A stretch of DNA of 64,000 nucleotides from an uncultured Chloroflexia bacterium (GCA_963814315.1 CAWFCG010000001.1:586903-650902), one strand, 5' to 3'; counted from the stretch's first letter, positions 10,532 to 41,676 are shown. Numbers and translations: made by a program. The notes: generated by a model from the sequence alone, not told the origin.

Positions 10532-10833
10532 CGAGCACCTCCTGCTATCTCGGCCGTCCGACGTTGCCTTGACTCGGGTGGTCAGGTCTGCGTGTCGAGG
10601 ACCTCCGACATGGGTCGAGCGATGACGACGCTGGGGGTGAACCTTGCCACGGGGCTGGCTCCTTCTCCATTCGCCGGGCGACCACGTCGGGCTGGATGCC
10701 CGGCGCCGGTTGGGCCCCCGCGTGCGCACCACCCTCGCCTGCGAGCGGAGGATAGCCGCTGACCCATCGGACAGGAAGTCGACCTTTGCGGCACTCTTCT
10801 GGCGCGGGCCGGCCGTGATCCGTGGCCGTGACC

Positions 10834-19603: not shown

Positions 19604-20884
19604 TCAACTCGTGGACAGCGCCTCGAACCCCGCGACACGCCATCGGTCCAGCCACTCGCGGCCGATGTGGACAGCCTCAAGGACCGCGCCCACATCATGG
19701 AGGTCAAGACCATCCGGCCAGCAGCCGCGGAGCAGCTCGGCATCGTCACGGCCGTCGGCACCAGACCGTCGCAGGACATCCAGCCCGGCAGCCACTCCCA
19801 TAGCGTAGCGCGGGGTCGACACACCTTCGGCGACCCCGAGGCGGATGAGGCCGATGAGTCGGTCATCCCAGCCCAGTTTCCGGCGCGGATCGCGAGCGGC
19901 GCGCTCGATGGTGTCGGCCAGGTACGGGTTGACCATGCGTTCCAACAGATCATCCGCGAAGGCCTCGAAGCCGGCGGCCGTGAAGAGATCGTCGGCCCCG
20001 GCCCAGCGCCGACGCAGGGTGGCACCGGACTCCTCGATGAAGGCGGCGCGCAAGAATCCCATGGCGCCGGGCACGTCGACCAGGTCGGCGAATAGGGTCA
20101 GGCCCAACGACTGACCCAGCAAGGCGCCGAGTGCGTGCGTGGCGTTGTGCCCCAGCAGCTTGGCGTCCTCGAAGGGTGCCAGGTCGTCCACTTCTCGCAA
20201 CACTGGCATCCCGGGATGGATCACGCCGGCCGGGTCCACGCGGGAGACGAGGATGCGGTCGAACTCCTCCACCAGGAATGCCGAAGGTAGCGCCGAGGTG
20301 ATGGTGGCGAGACCCAGCGACGTGATCTCTGCCGCATCGGTGATGACGCCGCTCATCTTGCCGATGACGGTGTCCACGTAGCGGGCACGTGGGCGGACGC
20401 GGACGCGCTCGCCGGCTGGGATCACCTCGAGCACGGCCTCTTCCAGCAACGCTGCTGCGCTGCGGTGGTTTTCCGCACAGTAGACGATCAGCGGCTGCGC
20501 CGCGGTGCGATCCTGGAGGCCCTCCGCGAGCAGCCGATGTGGGCTGTTGGCAGCATCGGAACGATAGAAGGCGACGCTGGGGAGCGCTGAGGCGAACTCG
20601 TCAGCAGCGGCGATGGCCTCGATGATTCGCGCACGTTCGGCAGTCACGGCCGAGTCGGCGACCTCGATCGGCCCCAGCTCGGCAACGTCGACCCGGTCGG
20701 CGCGAGCGATGTTGACACGAACTCGTCCGCCGGCAGCACGAGTACCGGCCACCAGATCTTCTCGCACGTCAACCACCAGCGGCGGCGCGTACTCGCCCGT
20801 TCGCTGCGCCTCGTAGACGAACAGGCCCGACCCGATGGCTCCGAATCCGAGCCCAACCAACCTTCGTGTGCCGCCGAAACCCAC
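19604..20884 (-). CDS. mannitol-dehydrogenase-family oxidoreductase (mannitol-1-P / polyol dehydrogenase-like)
   Basis: N-terminal Rossmann motif LGFGAIGSGLF. Size and C-terminal helical domain are typical of the PF01232/PF08125 family. Confidence 0.55.
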   Translation of the reverse strand: MGFGGTRRLVGLGFGAIGSGLFVYEAQRTGEYAPPLVVDVREDLVAGTRAAGGRVRVNIARADRVDVAELGPIEVADSAVTAERARIIEAIAAADEFASALPSVAFYRSDAANSPHRLLAEGLQDRTAAQPLIVYCAENHRSAAALLEEAVLEVIPAGERVRVRPRARYVDTVIGKMSGVITDAAEITSLGLATITSALPSAFLVEEFDRILVSRVDPAGVIHPGMPVLREVDDLAPFEDAKLLGHNATHALGALLGQSLGLTLFADLVDVPGAMGFLRAAFIEESGATLRRRWAGADDLFTAAGFEAFADDLLERMVNPYLADTIERAARDPRRKLGWDDRLIGLIRLGVAEGVSTPRYAMGVAAGLDVLRRSGADGRDDAELLRGCWPDGLDLHDVGAVLEAVHIGREWLDRWRVAGFEALSTS

Positions 20885-20888
20885 TCCC

Positions 20889-22163
20889 CTACCCCGCCGC
20901 GAGGTAGCGCCGCTCGTCGGCCGAGTCCCACCGGGTCACATCCTTGATGGCAGAGGAGCGCCGGTGTGGATAGACGATAGCTTTGCCCTGCACACGGCCT
21001 TCGCGGGCAATCTGCAGCAGCTCGGGCGCATGGGCCAGATCGCCGACGTGGCCGATGTGGGCAGCCGCGTCGATCTCACCAGCCGCCATCAGCCGCAACG
21101 TCTCGATGACGTCCCATGGGCCACCACCGGACGAGCCGGTGATGTTGATCTCCTGGTAATGCACGAAGCGCTCGTCGATGCCGATGGTCTCCTGGCCCGG
21201 GGGTAGACCGGCGAAGAGGTCGAGGACGCCGAAGCGCGCCACCAGATGCTGGACCAATTCCATGAGCGGCCCATCGGCGGCAGTGACGATGACATCGTCG
21301 GCGCCACGGCCGCCGCTGACGCGCTCGACCGTGGCCGTCAGGTCGCCGTCGCCGGCGACGACCGTCACCAGCTCGACACCGGCCGCGGCCGCACGCTCGC
21401 CGAACGTATCGTGGAGCCACTGGAGTCGCTCCGCGCGCCGGGCAGTGACGACGATGGCGCGTGGTCGCGCCGCGATGGCCAGATCGACGTGGATGCGGCC
21501 CATCGGCCCGGCGCCGATGATGACGGTGACGCCACCAGGCGCCAGGCCGGTCTGTGCGACCCGAGCCCGCGTACGATCGGGCTGCGAGAGGTGCATGTGA
21601 TGCGCGTGCGAGCTGATGATGCAGCTGATGGGTTCGGCGATGGCGGCGTGGCCGGCCGGCAGGGCGTCATCGGGAAGTGGCAGTAGGCAGCCAGCCGCCA
21701 GCACTTCTTCACCGATGAGGATGTACTCGGCGAGGAGGCCCGGAAGCGAGTAGCCGACCGCGATCTTGGCCACGCCGCGGCCGCCATCGTGATACCGATC
21801 GAGGTGGTTGATGGGTGAGTGGTCGACGGCCGGCTGCACCGAACAGCGCTGCCCTACGGACCACTGGTCACGAAGGCCGTCTCCGACCTCCACCAGCGTG
21901 ACCACGCCTTCGTCGCCCACGATGGCCGGATGCTGGGCGGGATCCCAGCCATGCATCAGCGGATGCTCAGCACCCTGGTCGATGAGCTTGTTGACCGACG
22001 TGCAGATACCGGCCGCATCGACCCGCGCCAGCAGTTGACCGGGCCCAGGTCGCGGCATGGGCAGACTGCGGACGGCGAGCTGATCGGTGCCGCGGCCAGA
22101 GAGCACCGTGGCCCGCATCTCCGTCGGCACCACCTCGACCTCTCCCGGCCTGATCACACTCAT
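20889..22163 (-). CDS. zinc-dependent medium-chain alcohol/polyol dehydrogenase (MDR family)
   Basis: GICTSVNKL and GDEGVVTLVEVG motifs. NAD-binding VIIGAGPMG. Confidence 0.7.
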   Translation of the reverse strand: MSVIRPGEVEVVPTEMRATVLSGRGTDQLAVRSLPMPRPGPGQLLARVDAAGICTSVNKLIDQGAEHPLMHGWDPAQHPAIVGDEGVVTLVEVGDGLRDQWSVGQRCSVQPAVDHSPINHLDRYHDGGRGVAKIAVGYSLPGLLAEYILIGEEVLAAGCLLPLPDDALPAGHAAIAEPISCIISSHAHHMHLSQPDRTRARVAQTGLAPGGVTVIIGAGPMGRIHVDLAIAARPRAIVVTARRAERLQWLHDTFGERAAAAGVELVTVVAGDGDLTATVERVSGGRGADDVIVTAADGPLMELVQHLVARFGVLDLFAGLPPGQETIGIDERFVHYQEINITGSSGGGPWDVIETLRLMAAGEIDAAAHIGHVGDLAHAPELLQIAREGRVQGKAIVYPHRRSSAIKDVTRWDSADERRYLAAG

Positions 22164-23095
22164 CGGGGCGGTTCCAGTCCAGCCAGCCGCCAGGCATCGG
22201 CAGGATCATCAGGCCCAGAGAACGTATCGATGGTGGTCGTGCACAGGGCGCCCATGGCCGCACCCAGCCGCGCCGCATCCTCGGCCCCAAGGCCGTGGAT
22301 CAGGCCAGTCAGCACACCGCCGGTGAAGGAATCGCCGGCCCCGGTGGTATCGATGGTGTCCACCTTGTAGGCCGGGATGTGACCCACGAAGTCATCGTGG
22401 TTGACCCAGGCGCCGCGCGGACCATCGGTGACGATGGCGAAGCGAACCCCCAGGTCACGCAAGGCAGCCGCCGCATCGGCCGGGTCAAAGACGCCGGTGA
22501 TGCCCACCACCTCGGCCAGGCTGGGCACGAAGAGGTCGGTGTACGGCAACGCCGGAAGCACCCGCTGCCACCGTCCGGTCGAGTCGTGGACCACGTCCAG
22601 GCTGGTGTGCAGCCCACGCGCCTTGGTGCGTTCGAACAAGCCGGCCAAGGGAGCACCGTCAGGGTCGTCCAACCCAGGCAAGACCAGCGCCCCGCCCACA
22701 TGGAGGTAGTCGCTGACCATTCGGGATTCGATGGACTCAGCGGTGATCGACGTATCGGCGCCAAGGTTGTGCAGCATCGTGCGCTCGCCATCGGCGTCCA
22801 CCGCCACCAGCGAGGTCGAGGTCGGGTACGGCGATGCGACGAACTCGACGTGCAGATGTGGTGCCGGCACGGTCTGGCGGAACGAGCGGCCGAAGATGTC
22901 ATCGCCCACGGGGATGATGAGCCGGGTCTCGATGCCCATGCCGGCCAGGACGCGGCCGGTGCGCAGTGCCGGCCCACCTTCGGCGGTCGAAAAGGTATCC
23001 ACGAGGCCCAGCACGCCGATAGGCAGCGGCCCCGTGGACTTGGCCAGGATGTCGAACACGGCGCTGCCGGCACAGGTGATCTGGATGTCGCTCAT
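22160..23095 (-). CDS. PfkB-family carbohydrate kinase (ribokinase/fructokinase-like)
   Basis: C-terminal DTTGAGDSFTGG anion-hole motif. 311 aa. Confidence 0.8.
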   Translation of the reverse strand: MSDIQITCAGSAVFDILAKSTGPLPIGVLGLVDTFSTAEGGPALRTGRVLAGMGIETRLIIPVGDDIFGRSFRQTVPAPHLHVEFVASPYPTSTSLVAVDADGERTMLHNLGADTSITAESIESRMVSDYLHVGGALVLPGLDDPDGAPLAGLFERTKARGLHTSLDVVHDSTGRWQRVLPALPYTDLFVPSLAEVVGITGVFDPADAAAALRDLGVRFAIVTDGPRGAWVNHDDFVGHIPAYKVDTIDTTGAGDSFTGGVLTGLIHGLGAEDAARLGAAMGALCTTTIDTFSGPDDPADAWRLAGLEPPR

Positions 23096-23116
23096 GTTCC
23101 GATGATAGGTCGGGCC

Positions 23117-24625
23117 CTACAGCCGGTGTGAGATGGGCGCGACCGCCGGATAGAGTTCGCGATATAGGTCGTACTGGCGGGAATACGCCTCGTGCCGCTT
23201 AGGATCCGGCCCATACGTGTCCGTCAGCTCCAGGAAGCGCTCGGCACCGTCGGCGGCAGACCCCCACAGCCCCGCCCCGGTACCCGCCAACAATGCCGCC
23301 CCGAATGCCGCCGCCTCGGTGATGCGCGGCGTGACCACAGGGATGCCGGTGATGTCGGCCTTCAGTTGCAGCCACAGCCGCGAACGCGCCCCACCGCCGA
23401 TCGCGCGCAACACGTCGATGGCCACGCCACCGTCGCGGAGGAGGTCCAGGTTGAGCCGCAGCTCGTAGGTGAGCCCCTCCAGGATGGCCTTGGCGATGTC
23501 AGCGCGGGATGTCGAGAACGTCAGGCCCAGGATGACGCCGCGGGAGGCCGTGTCGAAGGTGGGTGTGCCTGCGCCCGCGAAGTGCGGCAGGACCAACAGG
23601 CCGGATGGCTCCGCGGAGGCATCGGCCAGGATGACGTCGTACGCATCAGCACCCGACGCCGACGCACGATCGAGCTGTGGCTCACAGAAGCCATCGCGGA
23701 ACCAGCGCAGCGCCAGACCACCGCTGTGATTGAGCGTCATGGCCAGGAATAGTCTGGGCACGGTGGCGCGGTAGACCGAGACGTTGCCCTCATAGAGTGG
23801 CTCGGAGACGACGGGCGTGCCCAGCGCCACCTCCACGACCTCTGCCGTGCCCGTCGAGACCGATGCCAACCCGGGTCGAGTGAGTCCGACGCCCAGCGCG
23901 CCACAGGCCTGATCGTGGCCTCCGGTGACGACACCGGGAGGCGACGCCAACCCCAGTCGGTCGGCCAGGTCGGCGCGCATCTTGCCCACCAGCGTGCCCG
24001 AAGGCACGACGTCGGCCAGGCGGTCCGACGAGAGCTCCAACGCATCGAGGATCTCGGACGCCCAGCCCCCAGCACGGAGGTCGAACAGCTGGGTGCGTGA
24101 CGCCAGGCATTCGCTGATCACTGGGCGGCCGGTCATGCGCGCGATGAGGAAGTCCTCGACCAGCAGGAACCTGTCAGCCGCTGCCCAGACATCAGGCTCA
24201 TGCTCGCGAAGCCAGAGCAGCTTAGGCAGCGTGTTGACCGTGTGGATGGGCATCCCGGTCAGCTCGAAGAGGCTGCGCGCGCCGAAACGTTCGCGCAGCC
24301 AGGTGTTCTGCGCCTCGGTGCGGGTATCCATGCCCAGGATGGTCGGCCGCAGTGGCCGCCCGGCGGCATCCACCGGCGTGACCGCCTCACCGTGGACGGA
24401 CAAGCCGATGGCAGCAACGTCGCGCACCCCGGCCGCGGCAACAGCGTCGCCCATCGATTCGACGGCCAACGCCCACACCGCCTCGATGTCCTGTTCCGCC
24501 CACGTCGGCCGCGGGAAGTCCACGGCGTACTCGCGAGACGCGCCCGCGAGCAGCGTCCCGTCCTCGTCGAACACTACGGCCTTGCAGCCGGTGGTGCCGA
24601 CATCAAGCCCGATGAGGTTGGCCAT
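23117..24625 (-). CDS. FGGY-family sugar kinase (xylulokinase/fuculokinase-like)
   Basis: MANLIGLDVGTTGCKAVVFDEDG N-terminal motif and the FGGY C-terminal domain. 502 aa. Confidence 0.85.
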   Translation of the reverse strand: MANLIGLDVGTTGCKAVVFDEDGTLLAGASREYAVDFPRPTWAEQDIEAVWALAVESMGDAVAAAGVRDVAAIGLSVHGEAVTPVDAAGRPLRPTILGMDTRTEAQNTWLRERFGARSLFELTGMPIHTVNTLPKLLWLREHEPDVWAAADRFLLVEDFLIARMTGRPVISECLASRTQLFDLRAGGWASEILDALELSSDRLADVVPSGTLVGKMRADLADRLGLASPPGVVTGGHDQACGALGVGLTRPGLASVSTGTAEVVEVALGTPVVSEPLYEGNVSVYRATVPRLFLAMTLNHSGGLALRWFRDGFCEPQLDRASASGADAYDVILADASAEPSGLLVLPHFAGAGTPTFDTASRGVILGLTFSTSRADIAKAILEGLTYELRLNLDLLRDGGVAIDVLRAIGGGARSRLWLQLKADITGIPVVTPRITEAAAFGAALLAGTGAGLWGSAADGAERFLELTDTYGPDPKRHEAYSRQYDLYRELYPAVAPISHRL

Positions 24626-24628
24626 CAG

Positions 24629-25757
24629 CTAGGCGTACCGTAGGGCGGCCTGGTACATGGCCTCGATGCGATCAGGGGTGATGTCAGGCTGCAGGTTGTG
24701 GGCGGCGCAGAACACGTATCCGCCCCCAGCACCCAAGGTCTCGATGCTGTACTTGACCTCGCGGTCGATCTCTTCGGGCGTGGCCCCCGGCAGCACCTGC
24801 TGCACGTCGATACCGCCTCCCCAGAAGGCCAGCTCGGAGCCGAACTCCTGCTTCATGACCGCGATGTCCATCTTGGCGGCGCTGCGCTGGATGGGGTTCA
24901 AGGCATCCACACCGCAATCGATGAGGTCCCCGATGATGTCGAAGACCGAGCCACAGGAATGCATGAAGACCACCGCATCGGTCTTGGAGTGGATGAAGTC
25001 GTAGAGCTGCCGCAGATACGGCTTGATCTCCGAGCGGAACATCTCCGGCTTGACCCAGGTGCTCATCTGGGTGCCCAGGTCATCACCCTGCGCCACTACC
25101 TGTACGTACGGCTCGACGTGCTGCAGGAAGAGGTCCCAGAGCGCGATATCGGTCTGGGTCGATCTTGTCGAGGATGGCGTGCGCGAGCTCCTTGTTCCAG
25201 TAGAGGTCCATGCAGAACTGCTCGTAGCCGCGCATGAAGCAGGCGCCCTCGAAGGGGCCCAGACACATGATGTCCGCCACGACCGCGTAGTCGGTCTCCT
25301 CGAACAGTCGCTTCGCCTCGTCGGCGATACCCGCCACGCGACCCGGATCGTAGGGATCGGGCCATTGCACCCGATCGAGATCGCTGGGCCGCTCCAGGTT
25401 CGCGAATGGACGCTTGACCACGTCGTAGTAGAAGGAGGCCTTCTCCCAGGTCAGGTCGTACTCGTCGACGAAGCGGTCGTCCGGCAGCTCACGGGTCTCG
25501 AACTCCCAGGGCCCCTTGAGGTACACCGCGCGGGTATCGATGTCGTAGCGCTGCAGCAGGTCGTCGCGCGGATAGACCGTGTCCATCTGGCGGTGCGAGA
25601 TATGAGGCTCGTCATCCGGCGGCAGACCCAGGTGCGTGAGCAGGTTCTGGTAGGCGATGCGGGTGGCGGTAGTGACGATAGTCGAACCAAGGTCGATGGG
25701 CACGCGATCAGGCACCTGGTGGTTCAGCGTCGCAACGACGCGTTCCCGGTGGTTCAT
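24629..25757 (-). CDS. uroporphyrinogen-decarboxylase (URO-D)-family protein, with an apparent frameshift near 25150-25175 (ORFs 25083-25802 and 24629-25096)
   Basis: The N-terminal half ends ...ELAHAILDKI. The family-typical continuation (DIALWDLFLQHVEPYVQVVAQGDDLGTQMSTWV) is in the adjacent frame. A G/C run lies at the junction. Confidence 0.55.
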
Positions 25758-25832
25758 CTCACTCCTCTGCCTGGCTCCGATCCCAACCTGATTCGCCGTC
25801 ACCCGTTCTCGCCCGACCCGCCCGCGCCGCCG

Positions 25833-26852
25833 CTATGACGGAGCGGGCGCTGGTTTGGCCCTGGGTGGGCCGATATCGCCCTTCTCGACGCGGATGTTGC
25901 GCCGCTCCAGGCGACCGAGGATGCGCATGCGTTGAGCGTCGATGAAGACAGCGAAGAAGATGACCGAGGCCGCAACCATGTCCTGTAGGTAGAGGTCGAC
26001 CTGGAGATAGACCAGGCCGGTGGAGATCATCTGCACCAGCAGCACGCCGATGACGGTGCCGGGGAAGACGTTGCCGATGCCGCCGAAGAGGCTGGTGCCG
26101 CCCAGCACGGCCGCGGCGATGGCACGGAACTCCACGCCCTCGCCGATCCCGGCGCTGATGCTGCCCTGCTGACTGATGGCGATGACGCCAGCCAGCGACG
26201 CGCAGAAGCCGCTGATGACGTAGACCGACCCGGTCAGGCGGACGACGTTGAGACCGGCCTTCTTGGCGGCATCGATGTCGTTGCCCATGGCGTAGATCTG
26301 CCGCCCCGGCGCGGTGTAGCGCAGGAACAGGACCGCTGCGACAACGACGATGGCGAGCACGAACACTGGAAGCGGAATCCCGAAGACGTCAGTGGCCGCA
26401 TAGGCCATCACCGGGGGCAGGATGAACTGTCGCGATTCGGTCAGCAGCAAACCGATGCCACGACCGACCGTCAGTGTTGCCAGCGTGGCCACGAATGGCA
26501 CCAGTCCGACCTTGGCGATGAGGAAGGCGTTCACGAAGCCCCAGCTGGTACCGGCCACGATGCCGGCCAGGATGGCCACGAGGTAGTTGACGTCCTGTTG
26601 CAGGAGCGTGCCCACGACGGCGGCGGTGATGTACATGGTGGCGCCGACCGAGAGGTCGATGCCGCCAGTCAGAAGCACGGCGGTCATGCCCACCGCCAGC
26701 AGGCCTACGAAGGCTGACGTCTCCACGATATTGGAGAAGTTGTCGAGGCTGAAGAAGCGCTCGTCAAGCACGCTGAAGAGCACGAACACCAGCACGAACA
26801 GGATGGCTGGCATGTTGCGCAGAACGGGCATGGTCAGTCGATTGCTGGTCAT
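25833..26852 (-). CDS. sugar ABC transporter permease (RbsC/AraH-type)
   Basis: 339 aa, roughly 10 TM segments, branched-chain/ribose-type permease signature. ATGA overlap with the ATPase gene. Confidence 0.85.
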   Translation of the reverse strand: MTSNRLTMPVLRNMPAILFVLVFVLFSVLDERFFSLDNFSNIVETSAFVGLLAVGMTAVLLTGGIDLSVGATMYITAAVVGTLLQQDVNYLVAILAGIVAGTSWGFVNAFLIAKVGLVPFVATLATLTVGRGIGLLLTESRQFILPPVMAYAATDVFGIPLPVFVLAIVVVAAVLFLRYTAPGRQIYAMGNDIDAAKKAGLNVVRLTGSVYVISGFCASLAGVIAISQQGSISAGIGEGVEFRAIAAAVLGGTSLFGGIGNVFPGTVIGVLLVQMISTGLVYLQVDLYLQDMVAASVIFFAVFIDAQRMRILGRLERRNIRVEKGDIGPPRAKPAPAPS

Positions 26853-28360: not shown

Positions 28361-28371
28361 GGCCAAGGTCC

Positions 28372-29463
<1,092 letters not shown>

Positions 29464-29600
29464 GTCGCCCGTTCCGTGCGGTTGCCGTGGTGGAGGTTCA
29501 TCGCTTCCCGGTTGATGAAGAGGATGGGGCGGACCGCCAGACGGCGGCCCGCGGCTCGGAAGAGGCGGCTCAGCGCCGCCCCTTCCGGAGTGCTAGATGG

Positions 29601-30650: not shown

Positions 30651-30729
30651 GAGTATTGACTCCTCCAAGATCTGTTCCCTAGATGGGCTTCTGACTCTCC
30701 GTTTGGCCTGCTAGCACCTCCTACGCTGG

Positions 30730-32142: not shown

Positions 32143-32183
32143 TGTCCTCTCCTCCTTGGACCTCATGGTCCGTGTGGTCCGTG

Positions 32184-33530: not shown

Positions 33531-34588
33531 GCCGGATCCGTGCCTTCCTGGCCGATCTCGACCATGACCTTGAGCGCCTCGCCGGCGGCGACGGTCCGGA
33601 AGACCTCATCGGCCTGATCGAGGGAGAAGCGGTGGGTGATGATGGCATCGGGATCGACTTGGCCACGTTCGAGCAGTCTTAGCGCGCGGGCATGGAAGTC
33701 GGGGTGATAGCTGAAGGAGCCGATGACGCGGATCTCGTCGTAGTGGATGCGATTGGCGTCCAGCGTCGTCATGGGCGCCGCCTTGGGCAGGCCGCCGAAG
33801 AGGACCACGTTGCCGCGCTTGCGTACCGCCTCGACCGCCTGCTGGTGGGTGGCGGCCACGGGGTTGGCACAGATGGCGCTGTCGGCTCCGAGGCCGTCCG
33901 TGAAGGCCTTGACCTCAGCCACGACGTCCTGGGTCATGGGATCGAGCACCAGCTCGGGCGCAAACGGCTCGGCCAGCTTCCGCCGCAGTTCGTTGGGTTC
34001 GGACAGGATCACGCGGGCGCCGCGCAGGTGGGCGATGAGGGTGTGCAGACAGCCGATCGGGCCGGCGCCCATGACCAGCACGGTGTCACCCAGGGTGGTG
34101 CCGATGTCCTCGTGACAGGCCTGCACCGAACTCAGCGGCTCGCCCAGGGCGCCCTGCGCAAAGCTGAGCGACGAGGGCATCTTGTGGATGGTGCCGCCGG
34201 CCAGGGCGTGTGCCGTCAGGACGCAGTACTCGGCCAACCCGCCGTCGAAGCCGGGCGTGATGCCGATCATGGTCATGTCGTCGCAGAGGTTGTATTGGCC
34301 CACGCTGCAGTACCAGCATTCGAGGCAGTGGACGTCCGGCGCGACGGCGAGGTGCTCCCCCACCGTGTAGCCAGACACGTCGGAGCCGACCTCGACGATC
34401 TCGCCGGCGAACTCGTGTCCGGGCACGGTGATGGGGCCGGCAGCCGGACCTTCACGCCAGCGCCGCAAGTCGGACCCGCAGACCCCACAGGCCCGGACGG
34501 CGAGGAGGACGCCGTCGTTGGGGCACTGTGGGACGGGAACGTCGACCAGCTCGATCGTCTCGGGGGCGGTGAGGTGGGCGGCTTTCAC
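33527..34588 (-). CDS. zinc-dependent alcohol/polyol dehydrogenase (MDR; sorbitol / L-threonine-DH-like)
   Basis: GVCGSDLRRW, GHEFAGEIVEVG, VMGAGPIGCL motifs. Confidence 0.8.
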   Translation of the reverse strand: MKAAHLTAPETIELVDVPVPQCPNDGVLLAVRACGVCGSDLRRWREGPAAGPITVPGHEFAGEIVEVGSDVSGYTVGEHLAVAPDVHCLECWYCSVGQYNLCDDMTMIGITPGFDGGLAEYCVLTAHALAGGTIHKMPSSLSFAQGALGEPLSSVQACHEDIGTTLGDTVLVMGAGPIGCLHTLIAHLRGARVILSEPNELRRKLAEPFAPELVLDPMTQDVVAEVKAFTDGLGADSAICANPVAATHQQAVEAVRKRGNVVLFGGLPKAAPMTTLDANRIHYDEIRVIGSFSYHPDFHARALRLLERGQVDPDAIITHRFSLDQADEVFRTVAAGEALKVMVEIGQEGTDPA

Positions 34589-35226
34589 TGGCTGTCGATC
34601 TCCCTGATCTTGTGACCGACGGCACCACCCGGATGGGTCTCCCCGAAATCGGTGACGGAGTAGCCGCGCAGCTCAAGAAGCGCCACACAGATGGCATCGG
34701 TGAAGGCCGAGATGAAGAGCGAGCTGCCCGTGGCCACCATGCCGAAAGGGTCGATGCCGTCCGGCGCGGTCACCGGCAGGATGACGTCGGCCAGCCGACC
34801 CAGGCTCGACGCGGGCTTCTCGGTGATGGCGACGACCACCGCTCCTCGCTTGCGGGCGATGCCAGCGAGGAAGACGACCTCGGTGGTCTCGCCGCCTTTG
34901 GATAGACCGATCCAGACGTCGTTGGCGGTCACGGCGCCGGCCGCCCCGTGCTGGCTGTCGCCAGGGTGCAGGAAGAGCGCCGGCGTCCCTACGCACGACA
35001 GCAGATGGGCGAAGCGCAGCGCCACTGCGTGCGAGGTGCCGGAACCCGACACGAGGACGTGGCCGTGGCAGTCCAGCAGCATGCGAACGGCCTGGGCGAA
35101 CGTGTCCGGCAAGTCGTTGGCCAGCGTCGCGGCGGCAGCGCTTTCACGGCGGATGGCCTCGGCCCCGAGCGCACGGAGCTGCTGATCGTCCATCAGCCGC
35201 TGATCGTCCAGCCGCTGCTCATCCAT
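34585..35226 (-). CDS. SIS-domain (phosphosugar isomerase / binding) protein
   Basis: VLVSGSGTSHAVA...GLSKGGETTEV matches the SIS domain. Confidence 0.7.
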   Translation of the reverse strand: MDEQRLDDQRLMDDQQLRALGAEAIRRESAAAATLANDLPDTFAQAVRMLLDCHGHVLVSGSGTSHAVALRFAHLLSCVGTPALFLHPGDSQHGAAGAVTANDVWIGLSKGGETTEVVFLAGIARKRGAVVVAITEKPASSLGRLADVILPVTAPDGIDPFGMVATGSSLFISAFTDAICVALLELRGYSVTDFGETHPGGAVGHKIREIDSQ

Positions 35227-36193
35227 CGGACGCCTCCAGGAGTGTCTCAGCCGTCACCGAGTCGGTGATGAGCACATTGATGAGGTGTCCGCGAAGCGCG
35301 GCGCGGATGGCGGCCTGCTTGTCCGGCCCGCCTGACACGCCCACGATCTTGGGCACCTGCTTGATCTGCTCCAGTGTCATGCCGATGATGCGGTCGTTGA
35401 TCTCCGACTCGATGCACTCGCCCTCGGCGTCGTAGTAGCGCAGGGCGATGTCGCCGACCGCCCCCTTGTGCAGCAGGGCATCCAGCTCGGCACGCGTGAT
35501 GATGGAGCCGTCGCGCATCGTCACCGAGCCCAGCGTGGGGGCACCGATGCCGACGAAGGCGATGTCCAGATCGTCGAACGCTTCCACGGCTCGTTGGACG
35601 TGGACGTCGGAGAGCAGCACCTCACGGGTACGCTGATCGGCCACGATGCCGGGCACCGGCAGCAGCGTCAGGCGACAGCCCAGCGATCGCGAGACGCTGC
35701 GGCACAGTTCCGTGGCGTGGACTTCCGAATCGGGCTGGCCAAGGCCACCGATCACCTGTACCACCTGGGCATTGGGGTAGCGCTGCGAGGTCAGTGCCGC
35801 GGCCATGTAGCGCAGCGTGTCACCCCAACACATGCCGATGGTGCTGCGGGGAGACATGGCGCGCAGTAGGTAGCCCGCGGCGGCGCTGCCGACGGCTCGG
35901 CTGACCTGCGCCTGTGTGTCCCCTGACTGCGCTTCGACCACGAGGGCCTCCTGCAGCCCGAAGCGCTCCTCAAGCGCGCTCTCGAGGTCGAGGAAGAGAT
36001 CCTCCGGCGCGACCACGTTGATCTGCACCACACCCGTCTCGCGCGCCTGTGCCATCAGCCGGGACACCTTCGAACGAGACAGCCCCAAGCGTGCCGTGAT
36101 GGCATCCTGGTTCAGGCCGTCCTCGTAGTAGAACCTGCTGACCTTTACCAGCAAGCGAAGCTCCTCGTTCGAAGGGTGGCTGGCTATCGCCAT
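35219..36193 (-). CDS. SorC/DeoR-family transcriptional regulator with C-terminal sugar-phosphate-binding domain
   Basis: N-terminal HTH (YYEDGLNQDAITARLGLSRSKVSRLM) and a SorC C-terminal domain. The start could alternatively be 36229. Confidence 0.8.
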   Translation of the reverse strand: MAIASHPSNEELRLLVKVSRFYYEDGLNQDAITARLGLSRSKVSRLMAQARETGVVQINVVAPEDLFLDLESALEERFGLQEALVVEAQSGDTQAQVSRAVGSAAAGYLLRAMSPRSTIGMCWGDTLRYMAAALTSQRYPNAQVVQVIGGLGQPDSEVHATELCRSVSRSLGCRLTLLPVPGIVADQRTREVLLSDVHVQRAVEAFDDLDIAFVGIGAPTLGSVTMRDGSIITRAELDALLHKGAVGDIALRYYDAEGECIESEINDRIIGMTLEQIKQVPKIVGVSGGPDKQAAIRAALRGHLINVLITDSVTAETLLEASDG

Positions 36194-36194
36194 G

Positions 36195-36226
36195 AAAGAA
36201 TTCCCACTCCTGAGAATTATTTCAGG
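36195..36226. promoter_or_regulatory. candidate SorC operator at the regulator's own start: AGAATTC half-site plus the imperfect palindrome CCTGAGAATTATTTCAGG
   Basis: Seen directly in the sequence. Shares the TGAGAAT / GAGAATTC words with the site at 40269-40302. Confidence 0.45.
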
Positions 36227-36860
36227 CACCGTAGCATGGTCACCAGGCGGTCGTCAACCATAAGGGGCAATCGAATGCATCGGTCCGCTGCACAGCGCGA
36301 CCCGCCGGGCGGGTGATCCGACAGTCGTTCGCCATCCATCTGGGCCTGGCCGGCAGTCCTATCCACATGGCGGGTGAAACAGCGATGATCCAACGCCATC
36401 CGCGCGCTCGCTACGTTCGTTCACCCGCCCCGCGGGGCGATCGACCGAATCTGGGTGCCTGAAGGCGACCTGCTCCGTCACTTCACCCGTCCGGTGGGTC
36501 AGACCGACCACCGCAGCCATAGCGTCAAGGGCTCAGTCGCGACACCCTCAGCGTGGATGCGTGGGCGCGACATCCCTTGGGCGCGATGACGCGATTGGCA
36601 TGGATGAAGCAGTCACGCCACAGCTGGTGGTTCCCGTGCATCGGGAGAGCCTGACCCGTGATGCCATCAGAAGGCCACCTATTCCCGCACGGCGGGAGAA
36701 GACGGCAGCGGTTGACGTTCTGCGGGAAACATCGGCAGGTTCGAGGTCCCACCGGTCGTGTTGGCCCGCTGAACGGGAACCTCGGGACGTCGCGGGACCA
36801 TGGCGCATCGCTGCGCCAGTGCCACGGCTTGCCACTCGGGCGGTCGACTCGTTGGGGGCG

Positions 36861-37382
36861 CTACTCCTCGGGCGGGTAGACCTTCTCCGGCGGATTGCGG
36901 CGCGCGGGACGGCAGATCAGCTCGTAGGTGACGCCGTACGCTTCCTGTGTATCGAGATAGGCGTAGTGGCCGTCGCCATCGGGACCGAAACCGGAGCCGT
37001 CCATGATCATGCGGAAACCGGCAGCCTCAGCCTGCGCCAGGGCCACATCCATATCGTCCACTAGCACGCCAAGATGCTGCACGCCGAACCCATGCGCCGC
37101 GACGAAGTCAGCGTAGACCGTCGGCCCCTCGACCATCTCGATGAGCTCGACGCGCATCGGCCCGAAGTAAGACAGCGCCACCCGCATCTTGTACTCGCAG
37201 GGCTGACCGTAGTAAGACATCTTCTTCACCAGCGGCTTGCCATAGGTGTAGAAGTGCCAAGGCCCCACGCCGAACATCTGGTGGTACATCTCCACGGTGC
37301 GGTCGAGATCCTGCACTACGAAGGCGATCTGGGCGATGCCGTTGTCAAGGAACGGCAGCCTCTGCGGGTGTTGCTCGCTCAT
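36861..37382 (-). CDS. VOC-family (glyoxalase / dioxygenase-fold) protein
   Basis: Start MSEQHPQRL at 37380-37382 with AAGGGGG upstream. Glyoxalase-fold repeats. Confidence 0.65.
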   Translation of the reverse strand: MSEQHPQRLPFLDNGIAQIAFVVQDLDRTVEMYHQMFGVGPWHFYTYGKPLVKKMSYYGQPCEYKMRVALSYFGPMRVELIEMVEGPTVYADFVAAHGFGVQHLGVLVDDMDVALAQAEAAGFRMIMDGSGFGPDGDGHYAYLDTQEAYGVTYELICRPARRNPPEKVYPPEE

Positions 37383-37392
37383 CCCGACCCCC

Positions 37393-38676
37393 TTATCCAT
37401 AGAGGGCGTCCTGCAGCCGGCGCAGCCGTGCCACGAACGTCGTCTCATCGACGGCCACATCGTCCTCGGTGATGATCGAGCCGGCAGTGATGGCCCGCTT
37501 GGCGACCGCTCCCGCACCGATGCCGATGGGCACCGCTCGCATCGCGCGAGCCTCTGCGTATGTCATGATCAACCCGTACCAATCAGGCCCGCCGATACCC
37601 TCCAGCACGGCCCCACCCTCGATAGCGCGCTTGGCCGTGCACACCACCTCGGCGTGCATCTGTTCGGCAGCCACGGTGACCTCGCCCAGCAGCACCGCCT
37701 CCGCCACCGACTGTGGCGTCTCCAGATCGCAGAGATGGTACGGCCGCAGGTGCAGGTAGTAGGGCCCTTCAGCGTGGGTGATGAACTTCATCTCCTTGCG
37801 GATGCGGGCATCGTACGAGCGCACGATGGCGAACACGCCTGGCGCGATGGCTCCGGTCGAGTAGTCCACGCAACCGGCGCGTGACAGGATGCCGCCGTCA
37901 GCCTGCGGGATGAACGTGCTGACCAGGTCATCGACCTCCACCTTGGGACCATGCATGCCGGGAACATCGGGCAGCAGGCCCGTGGCGTTGGACACCGCCG
38001 CCATCTCCACCATCGTCTTGGTGCCATCCTTGAAGGCCGAGAGCATCTTGGGGTTCATGCCCTTGCTGGCAGCCTCTGCCACGCAGGCATCGGGCGTGGC
38101 GGCAAGATCGATGACGTTGTTCTTGCCCTTGCCCAGGCTGACCACCTCGAAGCCCATCAGGATGGCCTGCTCGTGAAGCATCTTGAGCACACCCGGCTCA
38201 TCGCCCGACGCCACGGTGTAGACCGTACCCATCTTTCGAGCCAGCCGGTCCAGGTAGACCCCGATGGTGATGTCCGTCTCCACGTTCATCATCACCACGG
38301 GCTTCCGGTTCATGATGGCGTCGTGGGCTACGCGCGCACCCACATCGGGCACCCCGGTAACCTCCACGATGCACTCCAGGCCCTCCATCTGCGGCATCGA
38401 CAGCGCATCGGGCGTGACTACCGCGGCCCCGGTCCGGATGCCGTCCTCCGCCTCGGCGAGACCTTCGGCCACCAGCACATCACCCGAGCGGCCCATCTCA
38501 CCGTAGGTAGCGACACCACGGGCGACGTCCAGATCGGCGATGGCCGCGACACGCATGCCCTCGATGTTGTTGATGGCATGGGCTAGGCCGGATCCCATCT
38601 GCCCGCAGCCGACGATGCCGATGCGGATAGGGTCGTTCGCGGCGACCCGCTGCCTGAGCTTGCTGACCAGCTCCAT
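37393..38676 (-). CDS. NAD(P)-binding SAF-domain oxidoreductase, paralog 2
   Basis: IGIVGCGQMG. Collinear with 32184-33530. Confidence 0.6.
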   Translation of the reverse strand: MELVSKLRQRVAANDPIRIGIVGCGQMGSGLAHAINNIEGMRVAAIADLDVARGVATYGEMGRSGDVLVAEGLAEAEDGIRTGAAVVTPDALSMPQMEGLECIVEVTGVPDVGARVAHDAIMNRKPVVMMNVETDITIGVYLDRLARKMGTVYTVASGDEPGVLKMLHEQAILMGFEVVSLGKGKNNVIDLAATPDACVAEAASKGMNPKMLSAFKDGTKTMVEMAAVSNATGLLPDVPGMHGPKVEVDDLVSTFIPQADGGILSRAGCVDYSTGAIAPGVFAIVRSYDARIRKEMKFITHAEGPYYLHLRPYHLCDLETPQSVAEAVLLGEVTVAAEQMHAEVVCTAKRAIEGGAVLEGIGGPDWYGLIMTYAEARAMRAVPIGIGAGAVAKRAITAGSIITEDDVAVDETTFVARLRRLQDALYG

Positions 38677-38697
38677 GTGTGGCTCCTGTCTGTCGCG

Positions 38698-40248
38698 CTA
38701 CTGCGACCGGATACGGGCGAGCTCGACGAAGTCTCCGCGAAGGTCCTGATAGACCTGCTTGAAGAGCGCGAACCGTTCCATGTAGTCGGCATGGGCCGCA
38801 GGGTCGGGCTCCATGGGATCGATGGTGGTGGCCCAACCCCTGGCCACGGAGAAGTCCTTGAAGATGCCGGTAGCGACGCCGGCCAGGATGGCATCGCCGT
38901 AGGGCGCTCCTGTGCGTCGTTCCAGCAACACGGTACCGACGTCGAAGACATCGGTGATGATGCGCCGCCACAAGTTCGACTTGGCGCCACCCTCGTTGAG
39001 CACCAGCGGGTAGTTGACGCGGAGTCCCGCCGCACCGAGCGTCTCGAATGAGTGATACAGGGCGAAGGCGACCCCTTCCATGGCCGCGCGCACGACATGC
39101 CCCTTGGTGTGGTTGAGCGAGAGGCCGAAGAGCACGCCGCGAGCGTTGACGTCCCAGATGGGCGTGCGCTCGCCCATCAGGTAGGGCAGGAAGAACAGGC
39201 TGTCCGCACCTCTTGGCACAGCGGCTGCTTGTGCATTGAGCTCGTCGTAAACGTCCGGCCCACCGGCCTTCTCGCGCTCGACCTCCAGGGCTGAGAACTG
39301 GTCGCGTAGGTAGCGCAGGGTCCCGCCGCCAGTGGTCGTGGTCGGCACCGTGATGTATGTCGTCTCCGAATCCACGGTGTAGGGGAAGTTGATCGACGCG
39401 GCGCCCGATTCGCTGAACAGGAACTCGCGCGAGCGGTGGATGATGCCGAAGTTGCCGGCCGTGCCCAGGTTCATCTGGATGTCACCGGGCTCGATTGCAC
39501 CGCCCTGCATCCAACCAGCATTGCAGTCCACCTGGCCACCGGCTACCGGCGTGCCCGCAGCCAGCCCACACTCGGCCGCAGCCGCCGAGGAGATCTCACC
39601 GATGATGTCCTCGCAGCGACACAGTTCGGGCATCAGCGCCGGATCCACGCCCATGGCCTCGAGCAGGGCGGTATCGAAGCGCCGTTCCAGGATGTCGTAG
39701 GCGCCATAGAACGGGCCGGCCGAATAGTGCGCCGTCGATGTCCCCGTCAGCTTGAAGTTGATGAAGCCGTCGATGGTCAGGACCTTGGCGATGGTGCGGT
39801 AGCGCTCGGGATGGTTGGTGCGCTCCCAGAGCACGTTCATCAGTACGGGGTGGTCTTCGAGCCGGTTGGCGGTGATGCCGAAGATGCGCTCCGCGCCGAT
39901 GTGCTCGCTGACCCAGGTCACCTCAGCCGTGGCGCGGCGATCCATCAGGTTGTAGGCCCGAGGGAGCGGCTCACCGTCACGATTGACTAGGACGACCGAG
40001 GGGAGCGCGGAGGAGGCGGCCACGCCCCGGATCTCGGCCGGGTCCACGCCGGTCTCGGCGAGGACCTTGCGGGTCATGCGGCAGAAGGCGTCCCAATAGC
40101 GGGGCGCGTCATGTTCCGACCATCCGGGATGGTCGGTGTAGATGGGGTATTCCTCATAGGCATAGCCGACCTGCTCCCCGTCGGAGTCGATGAGCACGAC
40201 CTTTGCCCCGCCAGTGCCATAGTCGGCACCCAGGAGGTAGTCAGTCAA
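38698..40248 (-). CDS. FGGY-family sugar kinase (second)
   Basis: [24 protein letters not shown] and FGGY N/C domains. 516 aa. Confidence 0.85.
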
Positions 40249-40268
40249 GGTTCGTTTCCGTCGCCATG

Positions 40269-40302
40269 TGTGAGAATTCTCTCGCTTCTGAGAATATTCT
40301 CA
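40269..40302. promoter_or_regulatory. candidate SorC operator upstream of the FGGY kinase operon: two perfect palindromes, GAGAATTCTC and TGAGAATATTCTCA
   Basis: tgTGAGAATTCTCtcgcttcTGAGAATATTCTCA lies 20-50 nt upstream of the start codon at 40248. Confidence 0.5.
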
Positions 40303-40356
40303 ATTCAACCTAGCAGGCTGCGACTCGCGAGTCAAATCCTGATCAGCCGCTTGGGG

Positions 40357-41676
40357 TCAGGCGATCTCACCCGGGGGCGCGGTGGCGGCCTCGGCCAAAC
40401 GGCCGGCCGGCAGCAGCTCGCGGTCGGCCGAGTCCTCCCAGACCGCATCCGACCAACGATAGGCCACGAAGGCCACGCTGCAGACGAGCAGGCCCGCCAA
40501 CGCGAAGGGCGTGACGGAGCCGTCGTATGCCGCGTCGATCAAGGCACCGATGATGGCACCGCCGAGCGTTGCGATGGCCCCGATGATCGCCGCCGCCGTG
40601 CCCGCGACACGACCCATCGGCATCATCGCGGCAGAGTTCAGGTTGGGCATCACGAATGAGTGCGTCACCAGGATGGGCAGCACCCCGACCAGGTACAGCC
40701 AGAACGGCGGATGCCCGCCGGTAGACAGCGCGATGACCACGAAGACCGTGGTCGCGGCAAGGTAGCCAGTCAGTGCGAAGCGCACCATCCGTCGCAGCCC
40801 GAAGCGGTCGATCAGCCTGGGATTGAAGAGCATCGCGGCACCCAGCATCAGCGACGCCCCACCGAAGACAAGAGGAAACCACGGCCCCAGGCCGAAGACG
40901 TCGTCGATGATCAGCTCGGTGGAGGCGAGGTACGAAGCGAAGAACCCGAAGACCGCCATCTGCGCGATGGTGAAGCCCATGGCGAAGCGGCTGCCGAGCA
41001 CCACGCGCGCGGCCGTCCACAGCCGGGAAGCTCTGAGGGGAAGGCGTCGTTCGGCGGGGAGCGTCTCCGGCAAGCGCCTGGCCCAGAGACCTGCGGCCAG
41101 CGCGGCGACCACGAAGAACGCGAAGATCCAGCGCCAGTCACCGATGGCGAGCACGGCCGCGCCCAACGATGGTGCCATCATCGGCACCAGCAGGAACACG
41201 GCCATGATGTACGAGAGCACCTTGGCCATCTGGTCACCGCGGTAGCGATCACGAATCGTGCCCTGGGTCATGATGCGGATGGCCGCGGCACCAAGACCAC
41301 CCACGAAACGCAGCAGCAGCAGGATGGTCAGCGACGGCGCCAGCGCCGCCCCCAGTGCCGCCAACGAATAGATGACGAGGCCCACCCAGAGGATGCGCTT
41401 GCGACCGAGCGCGTCGGACAACGGACCCCAGAGCAGTTGTCCCGAACCGAAACCCACCAGGAACACGGTGATGACCGGGGCGATGGCCGTCGAATCCGGC
41501 GCCAGGCCAAAGCTCGATCGCATCTCCGCGAAGGCCGGCAGCATCATGTCGATGGCCAGGGCCGTCAGAGCCATGAGCATGGAGATGAGCACGATGAATT
41601 CGCGCTTGCCCATCGGGTCGACCGACTCGTCGGCCACCGGCTTGTGGGCAGGGTGCCCGTGGCGGAGAGCGGTCAT
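40357..41676 (-). CDS. MFS transporter (Bcr/CflA drug:H+ antiporter-like)
   Basis: 12-TM profile. GRKRILWVGLVIYSLAALGAALAP MFS motif. Confidence 0.8.
   Translation of the reverse strand: MTALRHGHPAHKPVADESVDPMGKREFIVLISMLMALTALAIDMMLPAFAEMRSSFGLAPDSTAIAPVITVFLVGFGSGQLLWGPLSDALGRKRILWVGLVIYSLAALGAALAPSLTILLLLRFVGGLGAAAIRIMTQGTIRDRYRGDQMAKVLSYIMAVFLLVPMMAPSLGAAVLAIGDWRWIFAFFVVAALAAGLWARRLPETLPAERRLPLRASRLWTAARVVLGSRFAMGFTIAQMAVFGFFASYLASTELIIDDVFGLGPWFPLVFGGASLMLGAAMLFNPRLIDRFGLRRMVRFALTGYLAATTVFVVIALSTGGHPPFWLYLVGVLPILVTHSFVMPNLNSAAMMPMGRVAGTAAAIIGAIATLGGAIIGALIDAAYDGSVTPFALAGLLVCSVAFVAYRWSDAVWEDSADRELLPAGRLAEAATAPPGEIA

Follow-up and report, generated by a model that had tools for sequence, protein, structure and literature searches.

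A possible D-apiose catabolic operon built around a DXR-II-family enzyme in an uncultured Chloroflexia bacterium

Apiose is a signature sugar of pectin, in rhamnogalacturonan II (RG-II), and of apiogalacturonan, which aquatic plants make. Known routes for its breakdown are an isomerase/kinase/transketolase pathway (ApsI-AplK-AptAB, MetaCyc PWY-8089) and oxidative routes through apionate. A cluster from E. coli SE15/ST131 confers apiose use in growth assays (PMC13001218), and GH140 enzymes, as far as characterized, cleave the bond of apiose at the base of RG-II side chains (PMC13501991). In the DXR-II family of DXP (1-deoxy-D-xylulose 5-phosphate) reductoisomerases, which includes the DXR-like protein (DRL) of Brucella abortus, complementation of an E. 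coli dxr mutant succeeded with 11 members of the clade, and relatives known as DLO proteins have no DXR activity (PMC3847144). That analysis of the family, from 2013, raised the question of why strains equipped with DXR-I should have evolved a redundant DXR, and a 2026 review finds that no defining pattern accounts for the distribution of Dxr-II (PMC13001223). In the literature that we searched, no catabolic role has been described for DXR-II. Here we examine a sugar-catabolic gene cluster of an uncultured Chloroflexia bacterium that carries two genes of this family. The window that we analyzed is a stretch of 64,000 nucleotides (GCA_963814315.1 CAWFCG010000001.1:586903-650902), and the cluster lies at positions 19604-41676, counted from its first nucleotide.

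The two enzymes, DRL-1 and DRL-2, had been described in a first-pass annotation made from the sequence alone as SAF-domain, homoserine dehydrogenase-like oxidoreductases. Judged by their profiles, both are DXR-II/DRL-family members: each scores well over the 27-bit cut-off of the catalytic domain DRL_cat (PF21135; scores in Table 1), and each matches the Brucella abortus DXR-like structures over its full length (DRL-1 to 3UPL, E = 2e-115, with residues 1-427 covered; DRL-2 to 3UPY, E = 1.3e-89). Identity to a Brucella DXR-II is ~48% for DRL-1 and ~39% for DRL-2, and the two are paralogues that share 43% identity (BLASTP). Lys191, Lys193 and Thr229 anchor fosmidomycin in this family, and His250, Gly121 and Arg320 were also singled out in the 2013 analysis (PMC3847144). 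All six are kept in DRL-1 in its alignment to 3UPL, and the motifs GKGKN, (S/T)KT and MHGP are present in both proteins. A neighbor-joining tree of 97 sequences places both with the DXR-II-type proteins, in separate subclades, apart from one DLO-like outgroup protein (from locus L008) that lacks the equivalents of K193, T229 and H250. DRL-1 is also the best-conserved protein of the cluster. In one relative (L020) the DRL is 68% identical and the other genes are 41-59% identical; across phyla, DRL-1 orthologues are 68-94% identical, and the next-best relatives reach ≤51%. Among the best 120 matches listed, DRL-1 homologues are 77-94% identical. It is this DXR-II identity that makes the cluster interesting. 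Within a sugar-catabolic operon, it potentially adds a new reaction to a known enzyme family.

We then compared the window with related contigs and genome stretches, labelled L001 and so on. Eighty loci came from species-representative genomes through a DRL alignment scan and 80 from metagenomes with Firmicutes-type DRLs; in all, 168 related loci were considered, 104 of clade I, to which DRL-1 belongs, and 64 with other DXR-II genes. The loci from both scans were scored by tblastn with every cluster protein, and a tree of the DRLs was built. Presence was counted in the 47 clade-I loci that have at least 3.5 kb on each side of the DRL (referred to below as well-flanked). A core of SIS protein, Zn-dependent alcohol dehydrogenase (Zn-ADH), DRL and FGGY kinase recurs, usually together with an isomerase of the AraA/FucI fold: the SIS gene is present in 43/47 loci, the Zn-ADH in 44/47, the kinase FGGY1 in 45/47 and the isomerase in 30/47. 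The hosts of clade I are Anaerolineae and other Chloroflexota, Pirellulales (Planctomycetota) and Verrucomicrobiota, with a sister group in Bacillota/Clostridia, and synteny of the core extends across these phyla. Relatives whose DRL-1 is 68-94% identical share this gene order, and the genes are therefore not neighbors by chance. The whole 22 kb had been proposed to form one convergent route; by this comparison, the conserved unit is confined to SorC-SIS-ZnADH-DRL1-isomerase-ABC-FGGY1, and the FGGY2-DRL2-VOC group (module A), the URO-D gene and the tail beyond FGGY1 are accessory.

Independent lines of gene context connect clade I with apiose. A GH140 gene (PF13204) lies within 10 kb of the DRL in 17/104 clade-I loci and in 0/64 other DXR-II loci (Fisher p = 2.8e-4), and the GH140 matches near clade-I DRLs score 240-377 bits. 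In an Anaerolineae metagenome-assembled genome (MAG; L016), whose proteins are close to those of the window (DRL-1 75%, isomerase 66%, FGGY1 73% and binding protein ~60% identical), the operon has a GH140 gene inserted between those for the binding protein and the permease; the GH140 product matches the structure named "Apiosidase" (8T9W, E = 1e-107) and BT1012 (5MSY, E = 6e-59). Massiliimalia massiliensis (L024) has two GH140 genes (PF13204, apiosidase-like) directly upstream of SIS-ZnADH-DRL-FGGY, along with an oligosaccharide-type ABC system, and another locus (L165) holds a pectin-type, rhamnogalacturonase-like gene. In L118, the order isomerase-SIS-ZnADH-DRL-FGGY-GH140 is followed by homologues of AptA (43%), AptB (36%) and AplK (42%), the identities being to the E. 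coli SE15/ST131 apiose cluster (L169).

The other core proteins were assigned by searches of the window proteins against Pfam and NCBIfam profiles, by PDB matches and by one structural model. No gene at 19604-41676 except the MFS transporter attains any curated NCBIfam cut-off, and none reaches an equivalog for the ribose, xylose, arabinose, fucose, rhamnose or autoinducer 2 (AI-2) systems. This agrees with the earlier view that the enzyme combination is unlike the canonical ribose, xylose, arabinose, fucose and rhamnose operons. With the isomerase, sequence and profile searches of the PDB gave zero matches. An AF2 model (pLDDT 81.6, pTM 0.87) used in Foldseek gave TM scores of 0.74-0.77 to AraA and 0.71 to FucI/D-arabinose isomerase (E = 1e-21 to 1e-15) at 11-13% identity, which is why sequence methods are blind to these relatives. 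The model thus predicts the three-domain L-arabinose/L-fucose isomerase fold. Residues E301, D303, H341 and H441/H442, which do not vary among 13 diverse homologues, are candidate Mn2+ ligands. In Bacillota-type loci, an extended short-chain dehydrogenase ("NAD-dependent epimerase/dehydratase") recurs beside the GH140 and DRL genes (L024 5765-6757, L028 11327-12340, L108 5703-6740, L148 7835-8869 and L165 17448-18485), often in loci without the AraA/FucI-fold isomerase, for which it may substitute, e.g., by reducing apiose.

The nearest solved structures to ZnADH1 are Tdh, ketose reductase and the sorbitol, L-arabinitol and xylitol dehydrogenases. The SIS protein resembles the N-terminal domain of KpsF/GutQ, lacks CBS domains and matches 3FXA (E = 8e-36) and the arabinose-5-phosphate isomerase 2XHZ (E = 9e-26); it stays below the cut-offs for KdsD (137 bits) and KpsF/GutQ (TIGR00393, 110.6 versus 203.7). 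FGGY1 falls just under the XylB cut-off (TIGR01312, 342.5 versus 380.25 bits) and is 26.6% identical to E. coli AplK. The SorC regulator scores 161 bits against LsrR (cut-off, 486) and shares 39% identity with its counterpart in the growth-validated apiose cluster of E. coli. For the binding protein every NCBIfam equivalog score is far under its cut-off, permease 1 is also below all of them, and permease 2 reaches 194 bits against RbsC (cut-off, 398). The scores for RbsB (28 versus 337), ribokinase (91 versus 300), LsrK (231 versus 528) and LsrC (162 versus 388) are equally short of theirs, and Pfam finds no LsrF- or LsrG-like gene in the cluster. The best PDB matches of the binding protein are 4RY0 and 5IBQ at 50 bits, with a ribose-binding protein at 48.6 bits; we tried to read a ligand from these solved homologues and dropped the attempt, as matches of 50 bits are too weak.

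We propose, at a rough probability of 0.45, that the core is an inducible catabolic operon for D-apiose, or for apiitol or small apiosides, in which the DRL reaction rearranges the carbon skeleton. Substrate, step order and DRL reaction are what we infer, as follows. The ABC system would import the sugar, and the isomerase would interconvert apiose and the ketose apulose, a reaction on a free sugar that suits its predicted fold. ZnADH1, of the sorbitol dehydrogenase type, would interconvert apulose and apiitol, or their phosphates, which suits its kinship to polyol dehydrogenases. Phosphorylation by FGGY1 would then give a 2-C-(hydroxymethyl)tetritol 4-phosphate, a hydroxylated analogue of MEP (2-C-methyl-D-erythritol 4-phosphate). 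DRL-1 would run the DXP reductoisomerase reaction in reverse: with NAD(P)+-dependent oxidation of the hydroxymethyl group on the quaternary carbon and a retro-aldol/aldol (alpha-ketol) rearrangement, the branched skeleton would become a linear pentulose 5-phosphate, and this product, xylulose- or ribulose-5-phosphate, would enter the pentose-phosphate pathway. The branched carbon of apiitol, a 2-C-(hydroxymethyl)tetritol, is symmetric (PMC1686944), and the terminal phosphate of this polyol is therefore MEP in which CH2OH replaces CH3. A reversible reduction of D-apiose to D-apiitol is on record as KEGG R03577, and passage through the achiral ketose apulose would let the single stereocenter be set MEP-like. 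Such a route, if correct, could do without an aldolase, a transketolase and a decarboxylase, and the cluster has none of the three; indeed, we found no C-C-cleaving enzyme in the cluster or in the rest of the window. Because a reductase-type Zn-ADH is paired with an oxidizing DRL, the route would be redox-neutral overall. The cluster content (isomerases, dehydrogenases and kinases, with no C-C cleavage), together with the DRL being its most constrained protein, matches a reverse-DXR route. The SIS protein is probably a phosphosugar aldose/ketose or 3-ulose/2-ulose isomerase that acts before or after the DRL. An undescribed rare-sugar or polyol pathway had been suggested for this cluster before, with apiose as one of several listed candidates; the comparative evidence favors that candidate, and we infer the assignment from it.

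Several points weigh against this proposal. To our knowledge, conversion of DXP to MEP is the sole demonstrated activity in the DRL family. Altered specificity is not evident from the sequence either, since only 8 fixed-difference positions separate clade I from the alphaproteobacterial DXR-II proteins and none is a known catalytic residue; our comparison of the two groups for specificity-determining residues was uninformative for the same reason. The 64-kb window has no GH140 gene and no known apiose gene (tblastn for the apt genes), so that the apiose assignment for the window rests on orthology, and GH140 is adjacent in only 16-26% of loci. The structural matches of the binding protein are weak and non-discriminating. 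On the chemical side, D-apiitol phosphorylated at C1 has the configuration opposite to that of MEP C3, and inversion via apulose or an altered stereospecificity would be needed. A real weakness is that the simplest scheme does not require the SIS protein, which is nearly universal, and the order of kinase and reductase is not fixed by the evidence. Finally, two clade-I loci described below carry acetoin dehydrogenase-like genes, which hints at a methyl-ketone (DXP-like) product in some members and clashes with a pentulose phosphate of central metabolism as the end product.

Outside clade I, the DXR-II genes occur in several settings. The alphaproteobacterial clade includes Brucella-type stand-alone genes beside a HAD hydrolase and PntAB. 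In ~25 alphaproteobacterial loci and one from Neobacillus, the DXR-II gene (at ~10001-11300 in each) is followed within a few bases by genes for acetoin dehydrogenase-like E1alpha, E1beta and E2, which are accompanied in some cases by Lpd and LipA; these loci (among them L004, L005, L007, L034, L040, L049, L054, L063, L066, L070, L072, L075, L078, L081 and L084) adjoin a SorC regulator and a glucitol-type phosphotransferase system (PTS) or an ABC system with a sugar kinase. Such a set would suffice to convert 2-C-methyl-D-erythritol, by way of MEP and DXP, to acetyl-CoA and glyceraldehyde-3-phosphate. Our literature search returned no paper on an acetoin dehydrogenase-linked DXR-II route and nothing relevant on methylerythritol catabolism. 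Within clade I, two loci have acetoin dehydrogenase-like E1a/E1b/E2 genes (L144 7819-10985 and L148 13699-17235), which lie downstream of an M24-like gene and of ZnADH, DRL and FGGY. A third clade holds DRL-2 and genes of Listeria and Neobacillus. In Listeria monocytogenes (L006, 7775-12602) the gene is part of a compact operon of SorC, DXR-II, GutM and PTS-Gut IIC, IIBC and IIA (Pfam-assigned), and DRL2-type genes elsewhere sit in FGGY-DRL-ZnADH-(SIS/VOC)-isomerase modules of their own.

These three kinds of sugar-operon context suggest that catabolism was the selective force behind the distribution of DXR-II. We tentatively extend this to the family as a whole, as a possibility rather than an expectation: DXR-II enzymes would be primarily catabolic "oxidoisomerases" of branched sugars and polyols, with clade I providing a fifth, redox-neutral D-apiose pathway without C-C cleavage, the acetoin dehydrogenase-linked clade degrading 2-C-methyl-D-erythritol and the isoprenoid DXR-II of Brucella/Bartonella being a secondary recruitment. 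If true, this would account for the patchy distribution of DXR-II and for its redundancy with DXR-I. The proposal for the core would, if it holds, mean a new D-apiose catabolic route in abundant, poorly cultured degraders (Anaerolineae, Planctomycetota and Verrucomicrobiota) and in gut Clostridia, and a second physiological reaction for the DXR-II fold, with DXR chemistry reversed on a hydroxymethyl analogue of MEP. Since DXR-II is discussed as an antibacterial target, telling biosynthetic from catabolic homologues matters for annotation.

Other readings of the core must be considered. If the DRL were a polyol-phosphate dehydrogenase acting without skeletal rearrangement and the SIS protein a pentose-5-phosphate isomerase, the operon would serve ordinary catabolism of an unbranched pentose or pentitol (D-arabinose, an L-fucose-like sugar, xylitol, arabitol or ribitol). 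The AraA/FucI fold of the isomerase, the sorbitol, arabinitol and xylitol dehydrogenases nearest to ZnADH1, the XylB-like FGGY1, the ribose-type transporter and the kinship of the SIS protein to arabinose-5-phosphate isomerases all agree with this, and the DLO relatives without DXR activity imply that not every family member rearranges its substrate (PMC3847144). We nevertheless consider it unlikely: both DRLs keep the equivalents of K193, T229 and H250 that the DLO-like protein has lost, no gene of the cluster is more constrained than that of the DRL, the association with GH140 and apt/aplK genes indicates a branched sugar, and no gene attains the equivalog cut-off of a canonical pentose system. 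It is also conceivable that independent sugar modules and an efflux pump merely lie side by side in the 22 kb, with no functional unit. Module A stands alone in three loci, the PfkB-MDR-MtlD-like tail is limited, among the loci examined, to the window and L001, URO-D occurs in 8/47 loci and the MFS gene only in L001, L010 and L011, and between module A and the core lies a gap of 630 bp that holds a promoter-like site. This is partly true of the periphery and quite improbable for the cluster as a whole, as the SorC-FGGY1 core is tightly packed, with overlapping stop and start codons, and syntenic across phyla, and as DRL1- and DRL2-type modules occur together repeatedly (the window, L100 and L149). 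It is compatible with apiose catabolism by the core and mainly trims the boundaries.

Finally, the DRLs could be ordinary DXP reductoisomerases in a cluster that takes up and phosphorylates 1-deoxy-D-xylulose, 2-C-methyl-D-erythritol or the AI-2 precursor 4,5-dihydroxy-2,3-pentanedione (DPD), with DXP/MEP being fed to isoprenoid synthesis as salvage or to catabolism. Deoxyxylulose is phosphorylated by E. coli XylB, and FGGY1 is nearly a XylB by its score. The DRLs themselves resemble Brucella DXR-II closely enough to keep the fosmidomycin-binding residues, members of the DXR-II clade complement a dxr mutant (PMC3847144), and the SorC regulator, two-permease ABC system and FGGY kinase recall the Lsr layout. 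The acetoin dehydrogenase-like genes of the ~25 alphaproteobacterial/Neobacillus loci and of two clade-I loci could cleave DXP to acetyl-CoA and glyceraldehyde-3-phosphate. Yet the window has neither such a complex nor any other C-C cleavage, which makes DXP a dead end for catabolism, and the isomerase, ZnADH and SIS protein would be superfluous for converting methylerythritol to MEP and DXP. Likewise, Lsr equivalog scores are far under their cut-offs, with LsrF and LsrG absent; an essential step of biosynthesis would be oddly placed in an operon under sugar control; and the association with GH140 and aptAB/aplK is left unexplained. We regard this as the least likely of the explanations considered.

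The layout of the region is given in Table 1. Eighteen genes at 19604-40248 are co-directional on the minus strand, and with the MFS gene the string at 19604-41676 counts 19. The single-strand string reported at first is thus real and, by Pfam, its inventory was essentially right; the genes beyond the 630-bp gap are all present, in the order VOC, DRL-2, FGGY and MFS rather than with the DRL paralog leading. The description as an island does not hold in terms of composition, because the G+C content of the region (0.635-0.683) is the same as that of its flanks and is ~66% throughout the window. The flanking genes, which encode an M24 peptidase, a GT2 protein, a CoA-disulfide-reductase-like protein and amino-acid enzymes, are unrelated to the cluster, and an Rfam scan gave zero matches anywhere in the window, the spacer included. 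The genes from SorC to FGGY1 are densely packed. An 813-amino-acid open reading frame at 26849-29290 is an over-extension of the ATPase gene, whose frame stays open upstream across the permease gene in another frame; the true start is at ~28360, at MSDLILQ.

Table 1. Genes and spacer of the cluster, with positions in the window and the profile evidence
Feature	Position	Strand	Evidence or remark
MFS transporter, Bcr/CflA type	40357..41676	-	NCBIfam TIGR00710 216.9 bits vs cut-off 200.9
FGGY2, sugar/polyol kinase	38698..40248	-	FGGY_N + FGGY_C; first gene of module A
DRL-2, predicted DXR-II/DRL-family NAD(P) oxidoreductase	37393..38676	-	PF21135 DRL_cat 203 bits
VOC (glyoxalase-fold) protein	36861..37382	-	Glyoxalase_4 66.8 bits
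630-bp non-coding spacer, module A / core	36230..36860		Promoter-like site 36243-36216 (-)
SorC/DeoR-type sugar-phosphate-responsive regulator	35219..36229	-	Sugar-bind domain 237 bits
SIS phosphosugar isomerase, single domain, 213 aa	34585..35226	-	SIS domain 63 bits
ZnADH1, polyol-dehydrogenase/Tdh subgroup	33527..34588	-	ADH_N + ADH_zinc_N
DRL-1, predicted DXR-II/DRL-family enzyme	32184..33530	-	DRL_cat 211 bits + SAF
Aldose-ketose isomerase, divergent, predicted AraA/FucI fold	30730..32142	-	Fucose_iso_C 100 bits
Solute-binding protein, CUT2, RbsB-like	29601..30650 or 30668	-	Peripla_BP_4 120 bits
ABC permease 1	28372..29463	-	BPD_transp_2
ABC ATPase, double ABC_tran	26849..28360	-	ABC_tran 182 bits across two stretches
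ABC permease 2	25833..26852	-	BPD_transp_2
URO-D-family protein, frameshifted	24629..25802	-	Two ORFs, each matching PF01208
FGGY1, xylulokinase-like kinase	23117..24625	-	FGGY_N + FGGY_C
PfkB-family sugar kinase	22160..23095	-	PfkB 144 bits
424-aa MDR dehydrogenase (Zn-ADH)	20889..22163	-	Weak ADH_N + ADH_zinc_N matches
Polyol-phosphate dehydrogenase, mannitol-1-phosphate 5-dehydrogenase-like	19604..20884	-	Mannitol_dh_C 57.7 bits

Module A is a truncated copy of a paralogous module and a lineage-specific add-on; the fuller version in other genomes has the order FGGY-DRL-ZnADH-(SIS/VOC)-isomerase. It stands alone in L033, L038 and L056 and presumably handles a related substrate or stereoisomer. 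FGGY2 scores 279.2 bits against XylB (TIGR01312, cut-off 380.25), is 20.6% identical to AplK of E. coli SE15 and has orthologues (55-60% identity) adjoining DRL2-type genes in L033, L038, L043, L100 and L149. The window, L100 and L149 come from unrelated lineages and each combine a DRL1-type with a DRL2-type module, so that a functional link between the two is probable. The VOC protein, with a weak match to methylmalonyl-CoA epimerase, could be an epimerase or isomerase; it is present in 6/47 well-flanked loci and accompanies DRL2-type genes in L056. The promoter-like site of the spacer comes from a consensus scan and lies directly upstream of SorC. At the position of this spacer, L002, L003 and L018 have a TIM-barrel (AP_endonuc_2) gene, also counted in 6/47 well-flanked loci, and we detected no remnant of it in the 630 bp.

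The URO-D protein does belong to the family first assigned to it (PF01208), with its gene split by a frameshift near 25157-25160: tblastn with intact relatives puts the frame switch between 25161 and 25156, beside a CCC run. The intact gene in L002, L003, L010 and L018 encodes 375-378 amino acids, and the family is present in 8/47 well-flanked loci. Many broken genes are typical of long-read MAG assemblies. Since the closely related contigs L001 and L003 also carry many, an assembly error is as likely here as a pseudogene. Outside the window, the tail of PfkB kinase, medium-chain dehydrogenase/reductase (MDR) and MtlD-like dehydrogenase occurs, among the loci examined, only in the nearest relative, L001 (94% identical), the available flank of which ends inside the MDR gene, before any MtlD-like gene; among the 47 well-flanked loci, PfkB occurs once and the MDR and MtlD-like genes never. 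PfkB reaches no NCBIfam equivalog. The nearest annotated relatives of the MDR are SorE-type L-sorbose-1-phosphate reductases (~28% identity, tblastn against plasmids), and the MtlD-like protein scores ≤82 bits against MtlD equivalogs with cut-offs of at least 356 and has only distant MtlD matches in plasmids. As a lineage-specific add-on, the tail might lead from a ketose through ketose phosphate and polyol phosphate to another ketose phosphate. An MFS transporter is present as annotated, with its gene directly upstream of FGGY2; it passes the Bcr/CflA efflux cut-off (TIGR00710) and is therefore probably unrelated to the cluster and to sugar uptake, and of the orthologous clusters, L001, L010 and L011 have it at the same position and L002, L003 and L018 lack it. 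An M24-fold (creatinase/prolidase) protein recurs inside eight clade-I clusters (L015, L017, L019, L026, L100, L101, L144 and L148), in copies 41-70% identical to each other (e.g., L026 12013-13125 and L148 12824-14029). We considered the M24 peptidase of the window (18206-19267) as a member of the cluster and rejected it, for it has no significant similarity to these genes.

Compared with known systems, the cluster shares parts with many. Brucella abortus DXR-II/DRL (3UPL, 3UPY; PMC3847144) has the PF21135 domain in common with both DRLs, aligns over the full length and has the same K191/K193/T229/H250. The Brucella gene, however, stands alone among housekeeping genes (HAD hydrolase, PntAB) and serves isoprenoid biosynthesis, whereas the window has two paralogues of separate subclades in what, from sequence alone, are SorC-regulated sugar-uptake operons. 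ApnO (D-apionate oxidoisomerase), the known hydroxymethyl-migrating enzyme, was considered as a possible DRL homologue and rejected, as ApnO (PDB 5T57) is a Rossmann protein of a different fold family, the P5C-reductase/FNO type. The literature that we searched joins neither apiose nor apiitol to DXR-like enzymes and holds no DRL-based apiose route, although an earlier description cannot be fully excluded. The apiose cluster of E. coli ST131/SE15 resembles the window in its SorC regulator, CUT2 ABC importer, FGGY kinase and oxidoreductases/isomerase acting on free sugar. This similarity is at the family level only (AplK 26%, binding protein 24%, SorC 39%), and orthology to the validated cluster was rejected; we found no biochemically characterized operon in synteny with the window, which would have spoken against a new pathway. 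Unlike the known apiose pathways, the window has no transketolase (the split AptA/AptB gives no tblastn match in the 64 kb), no RuBisCO-like protein and no AplK orthologue (FGGY1 26.6%, against 42% for the L118 orthologue), and in L118 the core and the known apiose system are physically adjacent. By sequence, the cluster belongs neither to the known apiose pathways nor to the rbs, lsr, ara, fuc or xyl systems. Its tail at 19604-23095 is like the L-sorbose operon (SorE and a hexitol-phosphate dehydrogenase) in combining a kinase, a SorE-like MDR of ~420 amino acids and an MtlD-like dehydrogenase, with only ~28% identity and with a PfkB kinase instead of a PTS. The AraA/AraB, FucI/FucK and polyol dehydrogenase-xylulokinase routes are similar in the fold predicted for the isomerase, the sorbitol dehydrogenase-type ZnADH1 and the XylB-like FGGY1; where the ara and fuc pathways have an epimerase or aldolase, the cluster has, in their place, a DRL and an SIS protein.

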